A DNA stretch of 64,000 nucleotides from the NCBI GenBank assembly GCA_965219445.1, contig CBDCNQ010000004.1, positions 352,001 through 416,000 of the forward strand, written 5' to 3'. The notes beneath the pieces were generated by a model. The model was given only the letters and a program-made list of their open reading frames with translations, was not told where the DNA came from and searched no databases. Both the position numbers and the translations under genes were made by a program. Each line of letters opens with the position of its first letter. The first letter of the stretch is position 1. This DNA comes from Longimicrobiales bacterium. GTDB taxonomy: Bacteria; Gemmatimonadota; Gemmatimonadetes; Longimicrobiales; Gaopeijiaceae. Shown one piece after another: positions 8,679-21,424 of this stretch.

Positions 8679-9810
8679 ATGAGAGTCCTTCACCTTCTGG
8701 CCCCGGCGCAAGTCGGAGGACTCGAGCGCGTCGTCCAGGGCCTTGCCGATGGGTTCTGCCGCCGGGGGCACTCGGTGACCGTTGGGGCGGTTGCTGCGGG
8801 GGACGACCCGTTGTCACCGTTCCTCGAGCCATTGATCAAAAGAGGAGTAAAAGTCCGCCGGATTCATGTGCCACACCGCGCTTACGTGCGAGAGCGTCGC
8901 CGAATGGCGGAAATATGCCGCCAAGTAAACCCGGACGTGCTGCATAACGCATGGATATCGGCCCGACCTCCTCGCCAGGGGTCCGGCAAAGAGGCAGGGG
9001 ATCGCGACCGTCACCACTGTACACGGCTTTACCGGAAACGGATGGAAGAACCGCTTCTACGAGGCTCTGCAAGTTCAGGCCTTCAAGAAATTTGACGCGG
9101 TTGTGGCCGTCTCAGAGCCCATCCGGAAAGGATTGGTCAAAGCCGGGGTCCTCAAGAGCCGAGCCTGGATGATCCGGAATGCCCCGGTTTGTTTGGAGGC
9201 ATCTTTGACCCGCACGGAGGCTCGACGGGCTCTTGGCCTCCCCGAGGAAGGGCCGATCGTAGGATGGGTGGGGCGCCTGAGCCCCGAGAAGGGCCCGGAT
9301 GTCCTACTTAGGGCCGTGACCCTGATTGGCCGGCCCCAGGTACGCCTCTCCTACCTCGGAGACGGTTCCTCACGGGTAGCTCTCGAGGCACAGGAAAGAG
9401 AGATAGTGGCCCACGGATCAGTGGATTATGATCGAGTTCGCTTCCACGGCAATGTCGCGAACGCGGGCCGCCTGCTAAAGGCTTTCGATGTCTTGGTATT
9501 GAGCTCCCGGAGCGAGGGTACACCTATGATCCTTTTCGAAGCCATGGATGCTGAGGTGCCGGTGGTCGCCACTCGGGTTGGCGGGGTGCCGGATGTGGTG
9601 ACCGAACAAGAGGCGATTCTGGTTCCATCGGAGGATGCTGAGGCGTTGGCCCACGGTATTCGGCAAGTGCTCCACAACCCCACGGACGCTAGTCAACGGG
9701 CGCAGGGAGCTCGACTTGTACTCCGACAGAAGTTCGCCCCAGAGCGTTGGCTGGATGCGTACGAGGACCTCTACCGTGCTGTAATGGCAGGTAGGAGAGG
9801 CCTTGGCTGA
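8679..9810 (+). pseudogene. glycosyltransferase family 4, frameshifted
   Basis: Removing one A at 8946-8947 restores PDVLHTHGYRPD...TVHGF and joins to the C-terminal part containing SSRSEGTPMILFEAM. Confidence 0.85.
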
Positions 9811-9891
9811 TCGTATGCCACCTCCAGATAGCGGATTGGCTCCACTCCCCTATGCGGAGGGATCGTCATGCGCAGAGTTCCCTAGGACCGC

Positions 9892-9918
9892 GCCTGGATG
9901 ATCCGGAATGCCCCGGTT
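9892..9918 (+). repeat. 27-bp exact copy of GT4 internal sequence 9163-9189
   Basis: GCCTGGATGATCCGGAATGCCCCGGTT at both positions. Confidence 0.9.
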
Positions 9919-10074
9919 AGCTTGGGATCTGAACCGAGAGGAGTTCGGGAGATATTGGGTCACGGATCCGATGCCGTGTTGTCTTGCTCAGAGATGGCTC
10001 CGCGGCGGATGGCCCTCGAAACCCAGAAACCCGAGATGGAGGACTGTAATCGCAAGTAGCCGAGGGCCGCACTG

Positions 10075-11247
10075 ATGGGAGACCTGGGGATCGTTCTCCT
10101 CGGCGTTGGGGCAGGGCTATTCGCCTACACTTACGTCCTCTATCCGGGGCTCCTGAGAGTCTTGGGTACCGGCAAGGCACGCCTTGGCCCCCTTGTGGAC
10201 TCTGACGATTGGCCGACCCTGAGCATCTCGCTTCCCGCCTACAACGAGGAGCACCAGATCGCAGAGACACTCGAGAGCCTGTTGTCTCTGAATTATCCAA
10301 GAGACCGTATACAAATCTTGGTGGTTTCGGATGCTTCCACGGACAAAACAGACGATATCGTGCGGGCATACGGGGACCGTGGAGTGGAACTCCTCCGTCT
10401 CCCGGAGCGTCGAGGAAAAGGGGCCGCGGAGACGGCCGCAACGCCACACCTCACGGGTGAGATCGTTGTCAATACGGACGCATCGATCCGCATCGTCCCC
10501 GACGCGTTGAAGCCCCTGATCCGACAGTTCTCCGACCGTGAAGTGGGCTTGGCATCCGGTCGGGATATCAGCGTGGCCCCAGGCGTGGAAAACGCGAACA
10601 AGGGTGAGTCGAAATATGTGGGATACGAAATGGCGATCCGTAACCTGGAAACTCGGGTGGGGAGTATCGTAGGAGCTTCCGGGTGCTTCTATGCTATCCG
10701 GCACCATCTACATCGGTCACCGTTGCCCGTCCCTTTGAGTCGGGACTTCGCCGCTGCTCTTCTCTGCCGCGAGCGGGGTTATCGTGCCGTCTCGGTCCCT
10801 GAGGCGATCTGCTTTGTGCCGAGGGCTGCGTCACTAAGCCAGGAGTACCGTCGCAAGGTACGGACCATCACGCGTGGCCTGTGGACGCTGCTCCACAAGC
10901 GGAGCCTGATGAACCCATTCCGGTACGGGCTGTTCGCGTGGATGCTCTTCAGCCACAAAGTGTGCCGGTGGCTTGTGCCTTGGGCGGGTGTGACCGCCCT
11001 GGTCGGACTCGCTCTGATGACTCCCAGCATACCCTGGGCCCGCCTAGGCCTTCTGGTTGCGGGCGCCGGCCTCTTGTTGGGATCTGTCGGTTGGCTGGCG
11101 TCAGACCGGCGAAATCTTCCCTGGATTCTCGAATTTCCCGCCTTCGGCCTCATCGGAAATGTAGCCGCGATGCACGCGGTGCTACGGGTGATGAGGGGAG
11201 AAACGTACGCGCTGTGGGATCCGACGCGGAGAGCTTCGGTTCTCTAG
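10075..11247 (+). CDS. glycosyltransferase family 2
   Basis: PAYNEE, SDASTD, TDA, GASGCFYAIR, RRKVR; C-terminal TM helices. Confidence 0.92.
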   Translation: MGDLGIVLLGVGAGLFAYTYVLYPGLLRVLGTGKARLGPLVDSDDWPTLSISLPAYNEEHQIAETLESLLSLNYPRDRIQILVVSDASTDKTDDIVRAYGDRGVELLRLPERRGKGAAETAATPHLTGEIVVNTDASIRIVPDALKPLIRQFSDREVGLASGRDISVAPGVENANKGESKYVGYEMAIRNLETRVGSIVGASGCFYAIRHHLHRSPLPVPLSRDFAAALLCRERGYRAVSVPEAICFVPRAASLSQEYRRKVRTITRGLWTLLHKRSLMNPFRYGLFAWMLFSHKVCRWLVPWAGVTALVGLALMTPSIPWARLGLLVAGAGLLLGSVGWLASDRRNLPWILEFPAFGLIGNVAAMHAVLRVMRGETYALWDPTRRASVL

Positions 11248-12002
11248 ATCGCACCCCGCTTCATGACAACTACAGGGAGTGTCCGTGCCATGATCTCGAG
11301 ATCCAGAAGGGGGGAGCGGTTGCGGATGTACTCCAGGTCCAGATCTGCCTTCCTCCGCACATCGTCGATCGAGCGATCGTAATGGTGGCATACCTGGGCG
11401 AGCCCGGTGATTCCCGGAAGGACCTGCTGCCGGCCGGAAAGGTGGCGGACCTCACCGCGGAGTCGGACGAAAATATCCGGCTGTTCCGGACGCGGACCGA
11501 CCAGGTTCATGTCTCCGGTCAGCACGTTCCAGAACTGAGGGAGCTCATCAAGCCGATACTTCCGGAGGAACTTACCGACTCGCGTGATCCGCGCGTCGCC
11601 CTCCTCGGCCCAAACCTGGGAGGAGTCAGAGTCCGCTTGGACCATCGACCGGAACTTGTAGATGGTGAAGATCCGACCCCCATAGTCCTGGCTTCGGCGC
11701 GCCTCCTCCCGTCGGCTACGTAGTCCGCGCCGGTCCAGACCTACACGCGGCTGCATGAACAGGACCGGTCCTCGGGAGGTCAGCTTCACCACTACCGCAA
11801 CGGCCAGCATCAAGGGCGATAACACAGGTAGGACGACTAACGCTGCCAGCACGTTGAGAGCTCTGCACATGCCCTGGTTGAGGGCCGATCTCCCTTTCAG
11901 AGTCCGAGGTCGAACGAACTCCGGCTCCCGATAGTATAGCCTGAGACCATTCGGCAGGATGTCAACGCCCGTCGAAGCGCTCGTTTGAGTCTCTACCTGC
12001 AC
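11244..12002 (-). CDS. priming sugar transferase (Bac_transf)
   Basis: IYKFRSM, LDELPQFWNVL.GDMNLVGPRPE, PGITGLAQV. Confidence 0.93.
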   Translation of the reverse strand: MQVETQTSASTGVDILPNGLRLYYREPEFVRPRTLKGRSALNQGMCRALNVLAALVVLPVLSPLMLAVAVVVKLTSRGPVLFMQPRVGLDRRGLRSRREEARRSQDYGGRIFTIYKFRSMVQADSDSSQVWAEEGDARITRVGKFLRKYRLDELPQFWNVLTGDMNLVGPRPEQPDIFVRLRGEVRHLSGRQQVLPGITGLAQVCHHYDRSIDDVRRKADLDLEYIRNRSPLLDLEIMARTLPVVVMKRGAI

Positions 12003-12101
12003 CTAGCCTCTGTGCTCCACTCGAGGTCTCTGCCTGCAATCCGCTTAAGACGGCGAGATGCAAGATGCGTTCACAGATCGTGGCCCTACTTCACGATTAC
12101 C

Positions 12102-12842
12102 TTAAACCCTATGACAGCAATTATTTACGTGACTGGACATTCGATCCAACGGGGAGTGCGTGCGGACCGACGTGTCGTGAAGAGAAAAGGCGACTGCCTC
12201 ATCGTACTGACGGGAGGCCTCCTCTTGGGCAATAGTCATCAGGTCGTTGGAGACTCCTGCTAACCCCAACGCAGCAGAATAGATGAGGCCAAGCTGGCTT
12301 TTTTGCAGCTCGGTGAGACTTCCGCTCTGCCCATTCCGCAACGCCTCGGCAAGGAAAAGGATCGAGGTGAGAGGCGACCGCAGATCGTGAGCCACTTCAG
12401 CCACGAGTCGAAATGCGTTGGTTTCCGGCATTAGGGGCTCGAAGCCCTCGATGGCCGGTGCTTCGGCGAGGAGATCTATCGAGTGCAGCAATGCGAGAAC
12501 TCGATCCTGGTCGACGATTGGGTCCTCACGGTGCCATTGCTCGAGGAGACTCCTCCGAATCGCCGCAAGCAGGCGTACGTCGGTGTGCTCCAACGTCTCT
12601 TGCCCTTCACCATCCTCATACAGGACTCGGCCATCGCCGACCCGGTCCAGACGTATTGCGATGCGCATCAGTGCGTGGTCTATGGAGGATTCGCCGTCGG
12701 ACCCATTGGTCCAGTGGGGAGCCCACTCGGCAGATACCTCCCGAAGCGCCGTCTGGAGAGCGGGGCAGAACACCGCGGCAAACGGGTCGCTCGACCGGCG
12801 CTCGTCGACCGGATTCAGACCGGATGCGTCTGCGAGCATCAA
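12102..12842 (-). pseudogene. sensor histidine kinase, truncated (HisKA present, HATPase missing)
   Basis: AHDLRSPLTSI H-box; frame degenerates after FSLHDT with no N/G boxes. Confidence 0.75.
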
Positions 12843-13434
12843 TCCGGCTCCGGCAGTAGGGTGGTGCGGTGGGTTCCGTGCTTCTCCATGAGTCGATAGA
12901 GCGTCGTCCGGTCTACACCCGCATGCCGAGCCGCGTTGGAGATGTTTCCACCCGCCTGCTTGACAGCGTGCTCCAGATACGCCCGCTCGAAATCCGCCAG
13001 AATCAACTCACGGGCCTCATGGTAGCCCTTGTTCAGGTGGGACGACATGGGAGCGAATGCAGCTTCGGGCGAGACACCCTCACCCTCGAAGAAGGGGATC
13101 TCGTCGGGTCCGAGTTGTTGCCCGGGAGGTCGCAGCACTGAGATGCATTCGATGATGTTTCGCAGTTCTCTCACGTTGCCGAGCCAGGGACGGGCACGTA
13201 GTGACGCGAGGCCTTCGGGCGTAAAGATAGGGCGATCGAGTTCCTTCCCACGGTGTCGAATCCAGAACTCATCCAGAAAGGATTCGGCCAACGTCTCGAT
13301 GTCGTCTGGGCGCTCCCTGAGTGGCGGTATGTGAATCGGGAAGACCCGGAGCCGGTAATACAGATCTCCCCGCAGGCGCTTTTCTTTGAGCGCCTCAGTG
13401 GCGTCTTCGTTCGTGGACGAGATGAATCGTACTT
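12839..13434 (-). pseudogene. sigma-54-dependent response regulator, C-terminal part (end of AAA+ domain plus Fis HTH)
   Basis: VRFISSTN, DLYYRL, PPLRER, W.GNVREL, AARHAGVDRTTLYR. Confidence 0.9.
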
Positions 13435-13463
13435 GAGGTTGGGTCAATAGGTGTGTAAATGTT

Positions 13464-14708
13464 TCAGGCGGCGTTTTTCCGCTGTTGGGTTGAGACGGGC
13501 TTTCCGTCTTCGAACTTTCTTCCTTCAAATACGTCCTTGAGGAGGTGAGGAGCGTCGAGCCTTCTGAAGCGCTTCTCCGCCACCAAGAGCAGCTTCCAGA
13601 TCAGCGCCGTAGCGCTCTCGACCCGCTTGAAGCGCTTCGCCGCCGTTGTCCTGAGCCGTACTGCGGCAAAGGGGCTCTCGACCACGTTCGTCGTGCGTAG
13701 ATGCTTCCAGTGGTCCTCGGGGAAGTCGTAGAACGCCACCATCCGCTCCCAGTCGTCCTCGAGTACATCCACCGCCTTCGGATACCACGGTCTGTAGCGC
13801 CTGGCGAACGCCTCACGGGCCTTCAGCGCCTCGGACCGCCTCGGTGCGTAGACCACGGTCCTGAGAAGGTCCTTCGCCTCGCTCTGCTCCCGCTGAGGCA
13901 GCCGGTCCAGCACGTTCCTCATCTTGTGGTTCCAGCACCGTTGCTCGCCCGCCTCAGGCCATACCTGCCGTACTGCGCCCCAGATCGCCGCGTTGCCGTC
14001 CGCCATCAAAAGCCGGGGCGCCTCGATGCCGCGTGCCTTCAGATCCCGCAACACCTCGGACCAGGACTCGACCGACTCTCGGTAGCCCGATCTCAGGGCC
14101 AACACCTCCTTCGTACCATCTCGCATCGCACCGAGAACCACCAGCAGCGCTGCCTTGTCCCGCTCGAGCCCCGCCTTCACGTAGATCCCGTCCGCCCAGA
14201 CGTAGACGACCTCACGGTCGGCCAGCGAGCGCTTCGACCATTCCTCGAATTTCCTTGTCCATCCCGCCCGCAGCCGCCAAATCGAAGACTTCGACAACGG
14301 GGCCCCCTCGCCCAGCAGGCCCCGCATCGCCAGCTCGAAGTCTCCCTCCGCCAGCCCGTGCAGATACAGCTCCGGAAGCAGAGCACCCACCTCCTTCGTC
14401 CGTCGTGCGAACAACGGCAACACCCGACTCTCGAACCGCTCCTCAATGCCTCGAACCCGGGGCCGTCGGAGCATGATCGTGCCCGAGCTCATCGCCAGCC
14501 GCCGAGCCTTGCCGTAGCCGTTGCGGTAGCCTGGCGCCGGGTCTACGACCGTCTTCCGCTCCGACTTCTCCCGGCCGAGCAACTCCGTCACTTCCTCCTC
14601 CAGAATCCGCTGGACCATCTCCTGGGCCTTCTCACGAACCAGCGCTTCCAAGCACTCCCACGTCGGCGTGCTGGACTCACTCTCGGGTCCCACCATATTC
14701 TTCCTCAC
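13464..14708 (-). CDS. IS256-family (Mutator) transposase
   Basis: YRNGY, YVWADG, ADG, QRCWNHK, LRTTNVVES. Confidence 0.95.
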   Translation of the reverse strand: MRKNMVGPESESSTPTWECLEALVREKAQEMVQRILEEEVTELLGREKSERKTVVDPAPGYRNGYGKARRLAMSSGTIMLRRPRVRGIEERFESRVLPLFARRTKEVGALLPELYLHGLAEGDFELAMRGLLGEGAPLSKSSIWRLRAGWTRKFEEWSKRSLADREVVYVWADGIYVKAGLERDKAALLVVLGAMRDGTKEVLALRSGYRESVESWSEVLRDLKARGIEAPRLLMADGNAAIWGAVRQVWPEAGEQRCWNHKMRNVLDRLPQREQSEAKDLLRTVVYAPRRSEALKAREAFARRYRPWYPKAVDVLEDDWERMVAFYDFPEDHWKHLRTTNVVESPFAAVRLRTTAAKRFKRVESATALIWKLLLVAEKRFRRLDAPHLLKDVFEGRKFEDGKPVSTQQRKNAA

Positions 14709-14924
14709 GAGGCATCGTTCCTTTCCCCCGGGCGCTCACCCGGGATTCGCTGGTTAACTTCTTACTACCTAGCGGAAAGGTACGTCGCCTCTTTTTTTAC
14801 ACACCCTTCTATGGGGCTGGCGGTCAAGACGCACCTTCCCCACGCGCCGTCGGCTCATTTTTTGACCGTCGGCGTCCGCATGGTTTGGATTGCCCGGTCG
14901 ACGACTCAGGGTGGGGAGGGGTGC

Positions 14925-15120
14925 GCTCGCAGGGTCCGCATCGCAGTCCGGAAGACGTTCACAGCCGTCGCGTTCTCCGCTCTGGAGCGGGAACCATCCT
15001 TCTATCTGGGACTCTGTGGCCCATCGCTTCGTTCGGCTCTCCAGGGGTGCATAGCCTTTGAGTGGGGGCTTGGGCTCTCTGCCCCGGCCCACGGTGTGTA
15101 TGGATGCTGTCCCCTGTAAC
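14925..15120 (-). ncRNA. putative bridge/seek RNA of the IS110/IS1111 element
   Basis: Two stem-closed loops carrying target guides (UACACACC, UCAAAGG) and donor guides (AUAGAAGG, GAUGC); boundaries approximate. Confidence 0.75.
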
Positions 15121-15193
15121 CGGTTCGCTTCCGTTTCGTCGGACCCCATGTTGTGACCGCTTTCGACCCCACGCTCGCCGATCCCAGGCCGGT

Positions 15194-16249
15194 TTACTCC
15201 GTCGCTTCCAGTCTCTTGGGGTCGTACGCTTCGCCCGTGCGCCACACCGCTAGCACGATCGAGGCGAGCTGACGCGCGATCGTCAGCTTCGCCAGATTCG
15301 GCTTCGTGCCCCCCTCCAGGAGTCGCTCGTAGTGGCGGTACAAGGGTTCGTTTTCGGCCCGACCGATCACCGTCGTCGCCGCGCCCTTGAACACACGCTT
15401 CAGCGTGTGGTTGAAGTTCCGATTCAGCCCCCGCGTCTGCTGTACCGGTTCCCTTACCCACCGCCCACCCGGACCCCGCACCCAGTCCGACGAGCTCCGC
15501 ATCACGACGCCCAGTCCGCAGTACGCCCAGAACCTGCTCCGGCTCTGGAACCGGTACGGCGTCACCACCACCGGCAGGAGCTCCGCCGTCCGGATCGGAC
15601 CCAGACCCGGGCACGTCTTCAGCACATGCCACTCTCGATGCTTGCGTGCTTCCGCCAGCAAGGCCTTCTCGGCCTTCGCCCTCAATGCCACGAGTGCGTC
15701 GTGCTCCTCGTACAGCAACCCGGCCGTCGTCCTGCTCGCTTCCGGCAGCTTGGCCAACCACTCCTCCCGGTCGCGCTTTAAGTAGACCGAGCGCCCCGCG
15801 CCGTAGGCCACTCCTCTCGAGCGCAGCACGCTCTTGAGCCGGTTCTTCACCCGCACCGTGTCGCCGACCAGGAAGTCGTAGCTCTTCGCCCGTTCCCCCA
15901 GCCGCCTGAACTGGCCCCGGTTCTTGTAGACCCTCGTCTCCAGTGATCCGATCCGCAGCTTCTCCGCCAGGGCAAACGCGTCCAGCTTGTCGGTCTTCGG
16001 GCCCCGGCTCTTGCCGACCCCCGCCACCGTTAGCTCCTCCACGTGCGGCTCCAGCACCTCGTACAGCCACCCCGACAGCGTCCCTTCTTCCAGGCACAAG
16101 TGCCGGTTCCTCGGAATCCCTCGCAGCACCTCGATCAGCGCCCGCGCGTTCGTCTCCACCACCTGCGAGCCCAAGCGCTTGCCGCTGGGGCCTACAATCC
16201 CCAGCGTGCAGCTCGACGCGTGTGCGTCGAGTCCGATATATCTCTCCAT
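15194..16249 (-). CDS. IS110-family DEDD transposase/recombinase
   Basis: YIGLD, LEEG, KTDKLDA (DEDD), PGLGP, GLG..MRSSS with catalytic serine; ATG at 16249 after AGGAG. Confidence 0.95.
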   Translation of the reverse strand: MERYIGLDAHASSCTLGIVGPSGKRLGSQVVETNARALIEVLRGIPRNRHLCLEEGTLSGWLYEVLEPHVEELTVAGVGKSRGPKTDKLDAFALAEKLRIGSLETRVYKNRGQFRRLGERAKSYDFLVGDTVRVKNRLKSVLRSRGVAYGAGRSVYLKRDREEWLAKLPEASRTTAGLLYEEHDALVALRAKAEKALLAEARKHREWHVLKTCPGLGPIRTAELLPVVVTPYRFQSRSRFWAYCGLGVVMRSSSDWVRGPGGRWVREPVQQTRGLNRNFNHTLKRVFKGAATTVIGRAENEPLYRHYERLLEGGTKPNLAKLTIARQLASIVLAVWRTGEAYDPKRLEATE

Positions 16250-16410
16250 CGGCGTTCTCCTCTTGGATAGGTGGGTTGCTTCCTTGCGCGAACAATGATG
16301 AACGCGCACCCGCTCCCGGAGGAGAACGCCTCTTCGTCTTCGGGCTGCTTCGCTGCTGATCGGTACCGGTAGCCGTCGCCATGCCCCTATGATGCCTTTG
16401 ATCCTAGCTC

Positions 16411-17322
16411 TCGTACTTCGGCCAGGACGTCAGTGTCGGTGCTCCCCACACGGCGGATAACCCCATCTTGGATGACCCTGAGAAGCTTGGCCTGAGTGGG
16501 CATCGGCATCTGGGTGAGCTCATCCAGGAAAAGGGTCCCGCCGCTGGCTATCTCCATCAGACCCTTCTTGTCGCTCACCGCGCCCGTGAATGAGCCAGCG
16601 ACGTGTCCGAACATCTCCGACTCCACCAGATTGTCGGGGACGGCGGCACAGTTGATCGACACCATCGACCGACTGCTTCTCCGGCTGTTCTGGTGGATGA
16701 ATTGCGCGATCAACTCTTTGCCCGTGCCGCTCTCGCCGCTGAGGAACACAGTGGCATTCGTACGTGCGACGCTCCTGGCCATGTCGACAACCCGCCCAAG
16801 AGCAGCCGATTGACCAAGAATAGGGATCTCCGCGCCGTATCCCAATCCGGTCTCGTGGCTCTGGTACTGCTTGTCGCTCTCTCTCGACACGACGATCGCG
16901 TGCGCGGCCCGCCCCATGAGAATGTGGAGATGGGTAGCCGAAAAGGGCTTCGGGATATAGTCCCAAGCCCCCAGACGAAGGGCCTCGAGGCTGGTCTCCA
17001 CCGACGGCTTCCCGGTCATCATGACGACCAAGCACTCTTCGTCCTTCTCCACCGCAGCGTTCAGGAGATCCATTCCCGAGACGTCTCGCATGTAGAGGTC
17101 GAGCAGAACGATCTCAAAATGACGACGACGAATGAAGTCGAGAGCCTCCTCTCCGCCCGCCGTTACTGGAAACCCTTCGGCACGAAGCAAGGACGCACAA
17201 CTCTCGCGGAGGCTGTGGTCGTCGTCGACCACGAGTACGGGCATGGTCGATTTTACGTCGGTCTCGACGATCGTCGGGGGCCTCTCGCTGCCAGGCGTCC
17301 CTGTGGCTTCGGACGTCTTCAA
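16411..17322 (-). pseudogene. sigma-54-dependent response regulator, N-terminal part (REC plus AAA+)
   Basis: VLVVDDD, LLDL, GESGTGKE, ESEMFGH, GSFTGA, LFLDE, QAKLLRV; ends at the IS256 TSD. Confidence 0.92.
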
Positions 17323-17670
17323 GCTCGCCGGTCCCTCAGGTAGATGCCGCGGTTACAGTTGCGGAGACACGGATTCATACTCGATCCTCATTTGGGGCCT
17401 CGCCATTCAGGGGCAGTAAACATACGTTGCTGGAGGTACGCCGCAACGCACCTGTGGACTTCATGCAACGGTTCGTGTGTGGAGGTGCCATGAATCAAGC
17501 GGGGGGTAGGAGCCGAATCCCCAGTGTTTGCAAGTGTTTGCAAGAGTTTCGGTGAGTTCTTATTCTCCCGGAACATGTCGGTATCGGTCGTGCTGTGCTT
17601 CGGCTCTCGAGGGCTCACACGGCCATTCTGGGACAATCGATTCGTTGAGTAAATATGAACAAATGTTTGA

Positions 17671-20109
17671 GTGGAAGTAAACAAAAAGACGTGTTGGGAC
17701 GATGAGGACACCGTGAACAAAGACGAGTTGCCGGCTCCCAGCGCGGGGGTCGAGTTCCCGCTTATGGCGGCGCCGGATTCGCCGGACGTCAGTTACGAGT
17801 CTTTCGGCTCGGACCAGGATGAGGATTCCGGCGTCGACGTGCGGCGGCTCGTCGCGGCTGTTTTTCGCTTCAAATGGGTGGTGGCTCTTGCCACGATCCT
17901 GGGAGCCGTTGCGGGGGGAATAGCCTGGTCCAGAGTGGACCTGGAGTACGTCGCGGGAGGGTCTCTGTGGTTGCAGGCCTCCGGGGGTCAACTTCGAAGT
18001 CAGGGTCCGATCACCGGAGCTGAGCTGCTGAGCTCTTCTTCCTGGATTGAGCTCCTCAGGTCCCTCGCGGTGCTGAATACGATGGCGGTCGAACAGAGGC
18101 TCTACTTGAGCGTGCCCGACACGACCTTCAGGCCGGTGTTCGTTTCGTTTGGGATCGACGAGACGTTGGTCCCCGGGGATTACGAGCTCCATTATGCACC
18201 CGTGACACAGACGGTGACACTTTTTCGTGAGGGACTCATCGTCGAGAGTGCGGCGCCTGGAGCAAGGCTTGGCACCACGGTGGGATTTGACTGGACCCCG
18301 CCGGTAGAGGCGCTTGCAGCTGAGGAACGGATCCAGTTCTCCGTCGCTGCACCGCGGGTCGTGGCGGGCCAGATCCGAGCAAACCTCACCACTCAGATGG
18401 ACCAGAACGGGGCCTTCATGCGTGTCCAGCTCAGGGGGAGAGACCCAGTTGAAGTCGCGTCCACGCTCAACGCGATCCTGGACCGGCACGTCAACCTCGC
18501 GGCCGACTTGAAGAGCGCCGCCCTCGACGAGCGGACATCTGTTCTCGAAGGACAGCTTGCTACCGTCGAGAGTGAGCTTCGGGACTCCGAGCGACAGCTC
18601 GAGTCGTTTCGGATCAACACGATTGCCCTCCCGTCGGACGCCGCCATGCCCATTCAGGGAGGCATCCAGCTAACGCAGGGACCCGTATTTCAGACCTACA
18701 ACAGCCTGAAAATCGAAATTGAGGAGCTGCGTGCTGGGCGGAGAGCGATGGAGCGTGTGCTGGCGAGCCTGCCGGACTCGACGCTCAGGGTAGAGGTTCT
18801 GGAAACCATTCCCGAGGTTGCGACCTCTTCTCAACTCGTCACGGCGCTGAACGAACTCACCAATGCCCGCGTCCTGCTTCGCTCGCTCAAGCAGCGCTAT
18901 ACCGACGAACACACGGACGTGCAGGATCTCACGCGGGTGACCCAGATACTCGAAACCGAAACGATCCCAGACCTCCTGCGGTCCCTTGTTCAACGGGTCC
19001 AGGACACCGAGGAACGACTGCAGGTTCGGATCGACGAGGCAACTATTGAGCTGGGCGATATTCCTCCCCGAACCATCGAGGAGACCGGATTGGTACGGCG
19101 AGTCGCTTTGGCCGACCGCCTTTATGGGGACCTCAGAGGGCGGTATCAGGAGGCGGTGCTGGCATCGGCCAGTTCAGTGCCTGACGTCCGAGTACTCGAC
19201 CGCGCATCCCCGCCGAGGACGCCCGAAGTGGACGCCCGTGTTCGGGCGGCTTTGATTTCTCTTCTTCTCGGACTCGGAATCGGGCTAGGCTTGGCAGCCC
19301 TTTTGGATCGTGCCGACACTCGCGTCCAGTACACCAGTGACGTCACCAACGCGCTCGGGCTTGACATCCTCGGGGTTGTCCCAGTGATGAAAAACGGACG
19401 CGAACAGAGCCGGCGCCAAGCGGTGGAGGCCTTCCGGGAACTCCGCATGAACTTGGAGTTCGCGTACGGAGCCGGGAAGCCACTCGCTCTGACGCTGACG
19501 AGTCCGGATCAGTCGGAGGGTAAGTCGACGCTGGTGGCTAATCTGGCGACCAGCTTCGCCTCGGTCGGTCGCAAAACCCTGGTGATCGATGGGGACACAC
19601 GAAGGGGGGATCTGCATCGGATGTTGGAAGTGCCGCGGAAACCTGGCCTCACCGAGTTCCTCCGAGGCGACGCTGCCCTCACCGAAACGGTCCAGGCTAC
19701 CGGGTATTCAGGGGTCCACCTCATTGCGTCGGGCTCCCGCTTCCAATCCTCTCCAGAGCTGCTCGCCTCCGGGAAGCTCGGCGATCTTCTGGGTGAGTTG
19801 TGGGCGCGCTACGACGTCATATTAGTGGATAGCCCGCCGCTCGGCGCTGGCGCCGACGCCCTGATCCTGGGAACTCTCACCGGTCAACTCGGGCTCGTTC
19901 TCCGAGCCGGCCAAAGCGACATGAGCTTCGCACAAGCGAAGTTGGGAGCTCTTGAGCGTCTTCCTGTTAGGATGCTCGGCGTGATTCTCAACGCCTTTGT
20001 TCCGGGACGAGCGCAGGGGCACTACGCTTATGCGGACTACATCGAGGGATACGGCTCGGCAGATGAAACGGAGGAACCAGAGGCCCTCTTAGGCGTGGTG
20101 GAACGGTAG
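17671..20109 (+). CDS. polysaccharide co-polymerase / tyrosine autokinase (Wzc/GumC family)
   Basis: Two TM segments, coiled coils, Walker A EGKST, IDGD.RR, VDSPP, Tyr cluster HYAYADYIEGY; start may be GTG at 17713. Confidence 0.92.
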   Translation: MEVNKKTCWDDEDTVNKDELPAPSAGVEFPLMAAPDSPDVSYESFGSDQDEDSGVDVRRLVAAVFRFKWVVALATILGAVAGGIAWSRVDLEYVAGGSLWLQASGGQLRSQGPITGAELLSSSSWIELLRSLAVLNTMAVEQRLYLSVPDTTFRPVFVSFGIDETLVPGDYELHYAPVTQTVTLFREGLIVESAAPGARLGTTVGFDWTPPVEALAAEERIQFSVAAPRVVAGQIRANLTTQMDQNGAFMRVQLRGRDPVEVASTLNAILDRHVNLAADLKSAALDERTSVLEGQLATVESELRDSERQLESFRINTIALPSDAAMPIQGGIQLTQGPVFQTYNSLKIEIEELRAGRRAMERVLASLPDSTLRVEVLETIPEVATSSQLVTALNELTNARVLLRSLKQRYTDEHTDVQDLTRVTQILETETIPDLLRSLVQRVQDTEERLQVRIDEATIELGDIPPRTIEETGLVRRVALADRLYGDLRGRYQEAVLASASSVPDVRVLDRASPPRTPEVDARVRAALISLLLGLGIGLGLAALLDRADTRVQYTSDVTNALGLDILGVVPVMKNGREQSRRQAVEAFRELRMNLEFAYGAGKPLALTLTSPDQSEGKSTLVANLATSFASVGRKTLVIDGDTRRGDLHRMLEVPRKPGLTEFLRGDAALTETVQATGYSGVHLIASGSRFQSSPELLASGKLGDLLGELWARYDVILVDSPPLGAGADALILGTLTGQLGLVLRAGQSDMSFAQAKLGALERLPVRMLGVILNAFVPGRAQGHYAYADYIEGYGSADETEEPEALLGVVER

Positions 20110-21072
20110 AATCGTTCCTGACCCCGGGTCGCCGACTTGAGCCGCTCGGAGAGCTTCCATACTTCGCCCGATCAGGTCTTTCGCCCTGAGCGAGCCCCCC
20201 GTCCCGTCGAAAGCGGCATAGTACCCTGCCGAAATCTGCAGGTCTGACCGCCGGCGCTCTTTGAGGACGGCCCGGTCGCTCACGGCCTCGACGAGGCGAG
20301 TCGCCAGGATCGCCGCACCTTCTTCATCCGTTCCAGGGGCTAGGACAAGGAACTCGTTCGTGCCCAGGATCCCCGTTGAGTCAGAGTCCCGGGTTACCTC
20401 CACCAGAGTCGCCGTGATTCGGTCGAGAAGCCGGGGAAACCCCGGATCGCTCAAAGGCACTTTTAGGACTTCGTCCGGAGATCCCTCCACAACCTCTTCA
20501 GAGGAAACGACGCTCTGGCCCTCCCTTGGCCCGAGAGCCACGCAGGCCGTCCACCGCTGGCTCCGCTGTGCGTCCGCAACCAACTCCACGGCCCGCGCGA
20601 ACAACCCGTGCCAGTTATAGAGACCTGTTGCGGGATCCTTGTGTGTGTACTCCCAAGCATCCTCGACCTGTCTACGGGCACTAAGAAACGTTTTCAGCTT
20701 ACCTACAAGCTCGACCGGATCGATCGGTGAAGAAAAAATATCCCAAATACCGGATCTAAAGCACTCGTGCCGCTCCGTCCTGCTGAGACGAGCGGCGGTG
20801 GCAATGATGAAGGGGGTAGTATCGTCTACCGACGGCATGGCTCTGATGGCACGGCAGGCGTCCAGACCCAAGACGTCGGACAGGCTGTAGTCCACGATGA
20901 CGAGGTCGGGCCGGAGCCGGACGGCCAAGTCGATCGCTTGCCGACCGGTATAGGCTTTGACAACCGCAAATCCTGCTGGCTGGAGGACGCTCTCTATCGA
21001 CCGTGCAGTCCACTCTTGGCGGTTGACGAGCAGTACGATTGGAGCACGTGAGGCCGCGTGCTGACGGGTCAT
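20089..21072 (-). CDS. response regulator with degenerate GGDEF-like domain
   Basis: REC-like N-terminus (PDLVIVD), DPATGLYN, GTNEF in place of GGDEF. Confidence 0.75.
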   Translation of the reverse strand: MTRQHAASRAPIVLLVNRQEWTARSIESVLQPAGFAVVKAYTGRQAIDLAVRLRPDLVIVDYSLSDVLGLDACRAIRAMPSVDDTTPFIIATAARLSRTERHECFRSGIWDIFSSPIDPVELVGKLKTFLSARRQVEDAWEYTHKDPATGLYNWHGLFARAVELVADAQRSQRWTACVALGPREGQSVVSSEEVVEGSPDEVLKVPLSDPGFPRLLDRITATLVEVTRDSDSTGILGTNEFLVLAPGTDEEGAAILATRLVEAVSDRAVLKERRRSDLQISAGYYAAFDGTGGSLRAKDLIGRSMEALRAAQVGDPGSGTILPFHHA

Positions 21073-21424
21073 GTGCGGCCTCTCGGGGCCGATGGGATGT
21101 TCCAAATAAGGGTCACGGGAGCCCTCGGGAAATACATAGCACAAATAGCTGCATGAAACGTGCTAGCGTCGAAGCTGATGCTGAGCAGAGCCACTTTCCC
21201 GATGAGTTAGAAAGGTTGAGGTAGGCCGGACCGATAGCGTTCGCCGAGTCCACGGACCCTCACAAGGATAAAGGGTAGGGGGAAATCGTTGCACGAAGGC
21301 GAAAAACGTGGTGACTCTGCAACGGATTCGTACGATCGACGCGAAGGCGCGTGTGACGTGGCCCGGCGACCCCTGGAGCCCGATCGTTATTGAAAGAGGG
21401 TTCGATCTTGCCACAGGATAATGA

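Follow-up and report, generated by a model that had tools for sequence, protein, structure and literature searches.

Can the place where a mobile element has inserted be read from an RNA that the element itself would encode? The question is raised by a locus in a window of 64,000 nucleotides (the whole stretch of DNA that was analysed) from a Longimicrobiales bacterium, where an IS110-family element splits the 25-bp left terminal repeat of a resident IS256-family element after base 15. An earlier note had proposed a natural RNA-guided recombinase of the IS110 type that is aimed at IS256 ends. The covariation of the guides with the insertion sites and the presence of 23 of the 24 source-genome copies at this same site bear the proposal out. 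Taken as a whole, an active IS110-family bridge recombinase system with an IS1111 layout is very probably the best explanation of the locus. The mechanism and the insertion habit are already known, and the element is a new, unusually well-readable example of them.

The two nested elements interrupt a sigma-54 response regulator gene (Table 1). Upstream of the insertion the regulator retains PF00072 and positions 1-130 of PF00158, and downstream of it are PF00158 positions 133-168, the AAA lid and the Fis HTH. The split regulator lies within an exopolysaccharide cluster at 9100-21150 of the window, in which glycosyltransferase-, sugar transferase-, Wzc- and export-like frames were recognized by eye. 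The ends of the IS110-family element are kept in homologous loci, and a target duplication is absent. Its non-coding ends measure 388 nt downstream of the recombinase gene and 146 nt upstream. The subterminal inverted repeat is imperfect, with 12 matches that need two 1-nt insertions when aligned by eye, and the end extensions are 7 nt on the left (AG+GCATC) and 3 nt on the right (AGA) when the AG is counted left. A perfect 10-bp subterminal repeat is found in the Acidobacteria relatives (39-42%). The predicted promoter, with the spacing TTGACC-N17-CATCAT, would arise solely on joining of the element ends; a promoter scan of the linear element gave none, as expected.

Table 1. Positions of the nested elements, the predicted RNA and its guides; positions are those of the window except in the last row, which refers to contigs of the source genome (G000)
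Feature	Position	Strand	Details
Sigma-54 response regulator gene of the host, interrupted by the nested elements	12839..17322	minus	pieces 17322-16419 and 13434-12839
IS256-family element, host of the IS110 insertion	16410-13435	minus	
8-bp target duplication of IS256	16411..16418; second copy 13427-13434	minus	AAGTACGA
IS256 left terminal repeat, outer 15 bp	16396..16410	minus	GAGCTAGGATCAAAG, ending in the core AG
IS256 left terminal repeat, inner 10 bp	14796..14805	minus	GGTGTGTAAA
IS256 right terminal repeat	13435..13459	minus	from outside TCAA-TA-GGTGTGTA, with TA where the AG core would be
IS256-family transposase	13464..14708	minus	414 aa, frame intact; PF00872; NF033543 295 bits, cut-off 150
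IS110-family element, IS1111-like layout	16395-14806	minus	1590 bp, GCATCAT...ATAGAAG, one AG core counted at the right end
DEDD recombinase	15194..16249	minus	351 aa from ATG; PF01548 and PF02371 above cut-off
Subterminal inverted repeat, left arm	16377..16390	minus	ATAGGGGCATGGCG; 7 nt in, AG counted left
Subterminal inverted repeat, right arm	14811..14822	minus	CGCCAGCCCCAT; 3 nt from the core
Putative -35 hexamer	14822..14827	minus	TTGACC; TTGAC retained in most homologous right ends
Putative -10 hexamer of the circle-junction promoter	16389..16394	minus	CATCAT; left ends conserved
Predicted bridge/seek RNA core	14979..15123	minus	target loop then donor loop; covariance model R1, 135 bits
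Predicted target-binding loop	15042..15116	minus	CAGGGG/CCCCUG, GCAU/AUGC, inner hairpin
Right target guide	15091..15100	minus	UACACACC(GU), complementary to GGTGTGTA, which comes after the AG core
Left target guide	15055..15063	minus	ACUCAAAG(G), same sense as target GATCAAAG; contains the core AG
Conserved donor-binding loop (predicted)	14992..15038	minus	closing stem AGCCG/UGGUU, inner stem GGGC/GUCC
Left donor guide	14999..15005	minus	AUAGAAG; 3' strand of the donor loop; same sense as the element right end
Tentative right donor guide	15026..15032	minus	ACGAAGC; 5/7 complementary to left end GCATCAT; position parallels the right target guide
IS256 composites, examples with an end that matches another copy	C2:416881 with C2:467815; C4:199262, C4:326794, C5:654041; C4:1221680, C3:152179, C3:162158		

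The recombinase exceeds the cut-offs of both domain models, with PF01548 for the N-terminal DEDD RuvC-like domain at 39.3 bits (cut-off 29) and PF02371 for the C-terminal part at 32.5 bits (cut-off 21.3). D8 and E55 are present in 90/90 proteins and D87 and D90 in 99%, while S253, which aligns near the serine loop of IS621, is found in 87/90. NF033542 is the best family match (E 1.8e-32) and yet, at 112.8 bits, stays under its curated cut-off of 140, so the protein is a divergent member of the IS110 family. Insertion is of the IS110 kind: it is site-specific, in a single orientation, around a short core and without target duplication, and the flanks of the IS110 element, joined at AG, restore the 25-bp IS256 repeat that is found free in other genomes. 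The long downstream non-coding region, the top-strand guide ahead of the bottom-strand guide and the 7/3-nt end extensions are those of IS1111. The C-terminal motif is GLGVVMRSSS, which departs from the GL-P----S(T)G of IS1111 in lacking the P and, in most proteins, the G after the S. Because this motif differs and the repeats are imperfect, where those of IS1111 are perfect or near-perfect over 11-13 bp, the element works like IS1111 and is not filed under IS1111 in the strict sense.

Both insertion junctions are present in the window, GGATCA-AAGG-CATCAT at 16398-16395 and CATAG-AAGG-GTGTGTA at 14808-14805. The pre-insertion target given in the earlier note is confirmed by free IS256 ends in other genomes that read TAGGATCAAAGGGTGTGTAAAA (45 of the 46 free ends in G008); two runs also contain it, as loose ends at 14808 (4 contigs and 4 reads). 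The 4-nt core AAGG given in the same note is local microhomology: copies in G009 read AAG/AGTGTG on the right (a slash marks the junction here and below) and most homologues share only AG. Judged from these homologues, the conserved core is AG in most of them.

The predicted RNA was studied across 157 homologous loci, 77 from genomes and 80 from metagenomes. The 3' part is present in 128, the window included; 104 of these were parsed by fixed anchors and the 24 that could not be parsed were dropped. For the structure, 42 sequences were aligned from 45 dereplicated loci, with three excluded for long insertions or deletions and the window put in place of L001. The consensus consists of two stem-bounded internal loops, in which 14 of the 28 stem pairs show double changes and covariation reaches 0.356, as against 0.156 in shuffled and at most 0.098 in slid controls. 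The predicted structure rests on the alignment because single-sequence folding of the longer stretches is not significant, with z -1.5 for the whole 385-nt end and z -1.0 for 14920-15125; the 145-nt core alone gives z -0.85. The first loop, drawn in the earlier note as it is in Table 1, does better on its own (z -2.3, 4/200 shuffles as good), and its stems covary in the 42 sequences. A covariance model built from the alignment gave 77 matches in 81 sources and 50 in 53. It reaches the 39-42% Acidobacteria relatives, where the core is AC and the guides are altered accordingly. Rfam yielded no match over 14700-16500 at E up to 5.

Four guide motifs had been quoted for the window, and all lie where they were placed on the minus strand: UACACACC at 15100-15093, UCAAAGG at 15061-15055, AUAGAAGG at 15005-14998 and GAUGC at 14942-14938. 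The case for guided targeting is carried by the first two, which belong to the target loop, and by the way in which their counterparts vary among homologues. With one locus kept per distinct guide, the left target guide agrees with the left flank in 149/185 comparisons at positions -7 to -3, outside the core (37 distinct guides; permutation mean 73.6, maximum 106 in 20000), and the right target guide agrees with the right flank in 272/343 over 49 distinct guides when each is scored in whichever of three registers fits best (5000 permutations under the same rule gave a mean of 161 and a maximum of 194); the permutations overstate significance in that the homologues are related, yet the guides are many and different. 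Covariation of the guides with the insertion sites, the test on which the earlier note had staked its claim, is thus found for both target guides far above permutation. Single guide changes track flank changes, for example in L084, L088, L110, L126 and L144. Loci that misfit their own guide are L092, L121, L134 and L027 (right side), along with L053 and L136, whose left ends had probably been picked wrongly. The best register of the right guide was 0 in 23 of the 49 guides, +1 in 15 and -1 in 11, some of these being unsure on account of weak matches.

Several smaller regularities can be seen among the targets. The commonest target in the clade is GGATAG/G-N5-CAA, often in a short palindrome (L010, L013, L014, L081, L088, L090, L105, L109 and others); empty targets of this type, sought in 5 genomes, were as numerous as controls. 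The right flank of L110, G/TTAGAAA, fits GTTRRRY, the core of integron attC sites. In L061 and L148, elements that begin with A, the left target guide is followed by A as well (otherwise by G), which suggests that this base may pair with the donor after exchange in a handshake-like manner. Right guides ending in CUU (L122, L126, L140) complement the donor AAG better than the target.

The second loop is a conserved, simple loop, and its helices 5 and 6 are paired in 93% and 99% of the cells of the alignment. Its left guide, the part of the earlier donor loop that has stood, is identical to the last 7 nt of the element in 93/102 loci and follows every change of the right end across 9 sequence types. 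The tentative right guide ACGAAGC becomes CGAUAC where the left end is GTATCG (L047, L052) and is without its G where the left end is GCATTAT (the Acidobacteria group); the permutation for this guide is not significant (1229/20000, from 16 combinations in which some left ends were pattern-picked and may be wrong). The two loops had been said to run in opposite guide orders, an unsupported claim that rested on GAUGC, which lies outside the conserved RNA. Most likely both loops run right guide then left guide.

The second loop might nevertheless be accessory, with the target loop (about 75-80 nt, 15118-15041) sufficing and the ends recognized mainly by protein via the subterminal repeats. Such repeats do exist, the right donor guide matches at 5/7 only and its covariation is not significant, and an 82-nt seekRNA alone is described as supporting the movement of ISEc11 (PMC11187229). 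Against this, the left donor guide tracks the right end and the donor-loop stems are as conserved as those of the target loop; selection on donor pairing is therefore indicated, and an RNA that works through its target loop alone is conceivable but doubtful.

Of the 24 left junctions in the source genome, 23 lie in IS256 left repeats. It holds 28 IS256 left ends, 23 of them filled and 5 free, and all 5 free ends have an altered target, reading GGATCAG-AAGG, GGATCG-AAGG, GGATC-AAGG, GGATCA-GAGG and AAGGGTGAG; no perfect free target is left in this genome. None of the 29 IS256 right repeats there is hit, and these carry TA and not AG at the core, unlike the guide-defined 14-mer. The three free copies of the young IS256 are damaged precisely at the junction, two of them carrying a G as in the right end of the element, which fits imprecise excision or consensus error. 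The single copy off target, at G000:C2:336722, agrees with the left guide at 8/8 positions plus the next G, and its right guide is one base off; off-target copies in G118 and G066 share this shifted register. The flanks of G000:C2:336722 form one open frame without gain or loss, in a gene with a weak SIR2-like match below cut-off, and 12 genomes of the genus yielded no empty copy of the site. That off-register junctions arise through gain or loss of a base during insertion finds no support at the sole testable site, where the frame is open only without gain.

The occupancy of IS256 ends could also have come about if the IS110 and IS256 elements were moved together by the IS256 transposase, or if an ancestral composite was excised, moved and re-inserted, and not by repeated guided insertion. 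In its favour, most of the IS256 hosts show 100% identity, the repeat retains its outer 15 bp unbroken and several composites have an 8-bp duplication of their own (9 of the 24 left ends with a nearby right end, two of the 9 being free copies). A duplication of this sort is also expected when IS110 lands in an IS256 that is already inserted. The 22 full-length IS110 copies, 98-100% identical and with all four guides identical in 22/22, comprise 21 haplotypes in hosts that are 79 to 100% identical. The copies were therefore not simply carried as one composite, even if the haplotype mosaics could partly stem from gene conversion or mixed-strain assembly. Off-target insertions follow the guides as well, and transport as a composite is improbable as the account of these copies.

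Only those 9 of the 24 share a duplication of their own; many of the others have its counterpart at the distal end of a different copy, either pairwise or in cycles of three, which points to genome rearrangement between copies or to mis-assembly. Imprecise junctions were seen in L002, with an extra AAG after the right end, and at G000:C5:1030822, with a left end that is missing its C.

The donor loop of the earlier note, apart from its left guide, has fared less well. It had been drawn as a large multi-branched structure closed by CAGAGUCC/GGACCCUG, with GAUGC as the right guide and with guide orders opposite in the two loops. The motifs exist, GAUGC is a perfect 5-nt complement, and multi-loop donor regions are described for many IS1111 bridge RNAs (PMC11208160). 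In the alignment, however, GUCC pairs locally with GGGC instead (the inner stem, paired in 99% of cells), GAUGC is kept at the aligned place in 0/15 homologues, and L057 is without the region. A 5-mer is expected by chance in ~160 nt, and GAUGC was rejected as such: 6/56 dereplicated loci have it 35-75 nt after the left donor guide, one of the six being near-identical to the window, and the donor arm GCATC hardly varies. This version of the second loop is very improbable.

Two RNA runs (X19, X20) contained 5-11% of the words of the element. At low depth, contigs from these runs reached part of the recombinase gene, and the non-coding end had no contig, although contigs cannot establish absence. 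That observation speaks for site choice by the protein alone, with guide matches that are chance or copied remnants of old flanks, and the idea is scarcely credible given short internal loop segments that vary together with dozens of different flanks on a constant scaffold. The circle junction was found neither in the assembly nor among the joints that four runs gave. Intact free IS256 ends were present in these runs. The guide RNA and the circle are both inferred.

For an active bridge recombinase, the course of events can be proposed as follows. The element would form a circle, and whether this is cut out or copied out is described as open in the family (PMC13626964; bioRxiv 2025.10.25.684509). 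The joined ends would create the promoter, from which transcription would cross the recombinase gene and enter the 3' non-coding end, and family knowledge suggests that the resulting RNA of ~145 nt would bind the recombinase. The first loop reads the target, as the covariation shows: to the right of the AG core its 5' strand pairs with the top strand, and to the left its 3' strand pairs with the bottom strand. The second loop reads the right end of the element, which its left guide tracks, and probably, though loosely and tentatively, the left end. As described for IS621 (PMC11208158), the complex of recombinase and RNA may pair target and donor, the serine may cut beside the core and the strands may then be exchanged. 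Guides that spell the left terminal repeat of the resident IS256 would direct insertion without duplication after base 15 of its 25 bp, as found at the junctions, and in the source genome the process has reached saturation, the free targets being all mismatched. A split left repeat is expected to stop IS256 movement from what is generally known of DDE transposon ends, and it would very likely immobilize this IS256 copy until excision.

IS4321 and IS5075, which are of the IS1111 type, reportedly use a single position within a terminal inverted repeat of Tn21-family transposons, a finding said to go back to Partridge and Hall in 2003. The element in the window has the same habit, a single insertion site in a terminal inverted repeat that belongs to another transposon. 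Unlike their Tn21-family host, the host here is IS256 (Mutator-type), and only its left end is used. A literature search that combined IS256, IS110 and bridge RNA, with partial coverage, gave no paper on an IS256 target.

Closer parallels come from ISEc11, ISKpn4 and ISPa11 as they are described by Siddiquee et al. 2024 (PMC11187229). Like these, the element has a long non-coding end downstream, a top-strand guide before the bottom-strand guide (the right-before-left order published there for IS1111 seekRNAs), 7/3-nt extensions, a putative junction promoter, no duplication and natural reprogramming between relatives. It departs from that description in its imperfect subterminal repeat, where theirs is near-perfect, in having GLG-V-MRSSS and not GL-P----S(T)G, in the use of an IS256 end as target and in a conserved simple second loop that reads the donor end. 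With IS621 (PMC11208160, PMC11208158, PDB 8WT6) it shares the DEDD and serine residues, a target loop followed by a donor loop, a 2-nt core and, in putative form here, a junction promoter. The RNA of IS621 is reported to lie at the left end, where the left guide comes before the right one and the core is CT (PMC11208160), whereas here it is predicted in the right end, right-then-left, with AG. The likeness of the recombinase to that of IS621 is faint (E 0.019). Among the matches listed, two proteins in the IS110 tree table of Durrant et al. (rows 411 and 929, with no ISfinder name) share, by eye, EEG-L--WL and TP-RF-----W-Y-G-G.

Free IS256 left ends of the same type occur in 24/201 family genomes, and 7 of these 24 also have filled ones. 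In G009 each of the 5 targetable ends is filled, and the core is altered in every one of the 10 ends that are free; the free ends are ~97-99.9% identical to the filled hosts, and several have their own duplications. In G141, 37/40 free ends have an AA core and none is filled, and the IS110 relatives read there (2 of the 5 model matches) carry other guides. G113 holds 6 filled and 5 intact free ends, and G139 holds 1 filled and 45 intact free. A strict reading of escape by selection is weakened because altered ends stand beside other guides in G141 and because G113 and G139 keep intact free ends. What these genomes show is survivorship of altered IS256 ends. The bolder idea is that the clade is an RNA-guided brake on IS256 engaged in a two-base arms race, in which left ends are filled and immobilized until none but core-altered ones are left, these altered alleles then spread, IS256 guides arose or were acquired twice and the three-register right guide widens the reach; this is unlikely.

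In a protein tree of 46/90 proteins (at least 59% identity plus four others), whose root is unsure, the IS256-type guides fall into two groups, and their union in a single clade is rejected (p-AU 3.7e-05). The guides may have converged, or the RNA module may have been exchanged. A 95% relative, L009 (= L189), has the changed guides AUCACUAG and UACGCACC; its left flank is the IS256 right repeat GGGTCAATAG, its right flank is unrelated, and 7 intact left ends are free there. Possibly this element has been retargeted toward the IS256 right end. L197 and L209 in G141 have the guides UAGCCCCC and CAUCAUAG and are inserted at CATCATAG/GAGGGTTA, which looks like the left end of another element from the same clade, so an IS110 element that targets IS110 ends is possible.

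These findings leave the known mechanism unchanged. They add a divergent clade of bridge recombinases that lies below the NCBIfam cut-off, has no Rfam model and uses a compact predicted RNA of 145 nt. With guides that can be read against ~50 natural targets, the clade offers ready examples of natural reprogramming and, with its AG core, a candidate tool. That the right guide pairs in three registers is relevant to the design of right-end RNAs and to the prediction of their off-target sites. With IS256 ends saturated, it also becomes possible to test whether one IS holds back the spread of another.

Further rearrangements were noted around related copies. In L235 (G000:C4:1169600-1171800) a group II intron (Rfam RF02001, RF01998) lies within the inner part of an IS256 left repeat, a few bases past where an IS110 copy has its right end, leaving three elements nested at one repeat. 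Decayed related pieces remain in the source genome at C2:661546-661605 (left end, 82%) and C5:1023283-1023423 (RNA region, 51 bits). Tandem repeats of the 3' part, consisting of the gene end and the whole RNA region, give two RNA copies at G000:C5:1611138-1613245 and three at L005:3553-4700.
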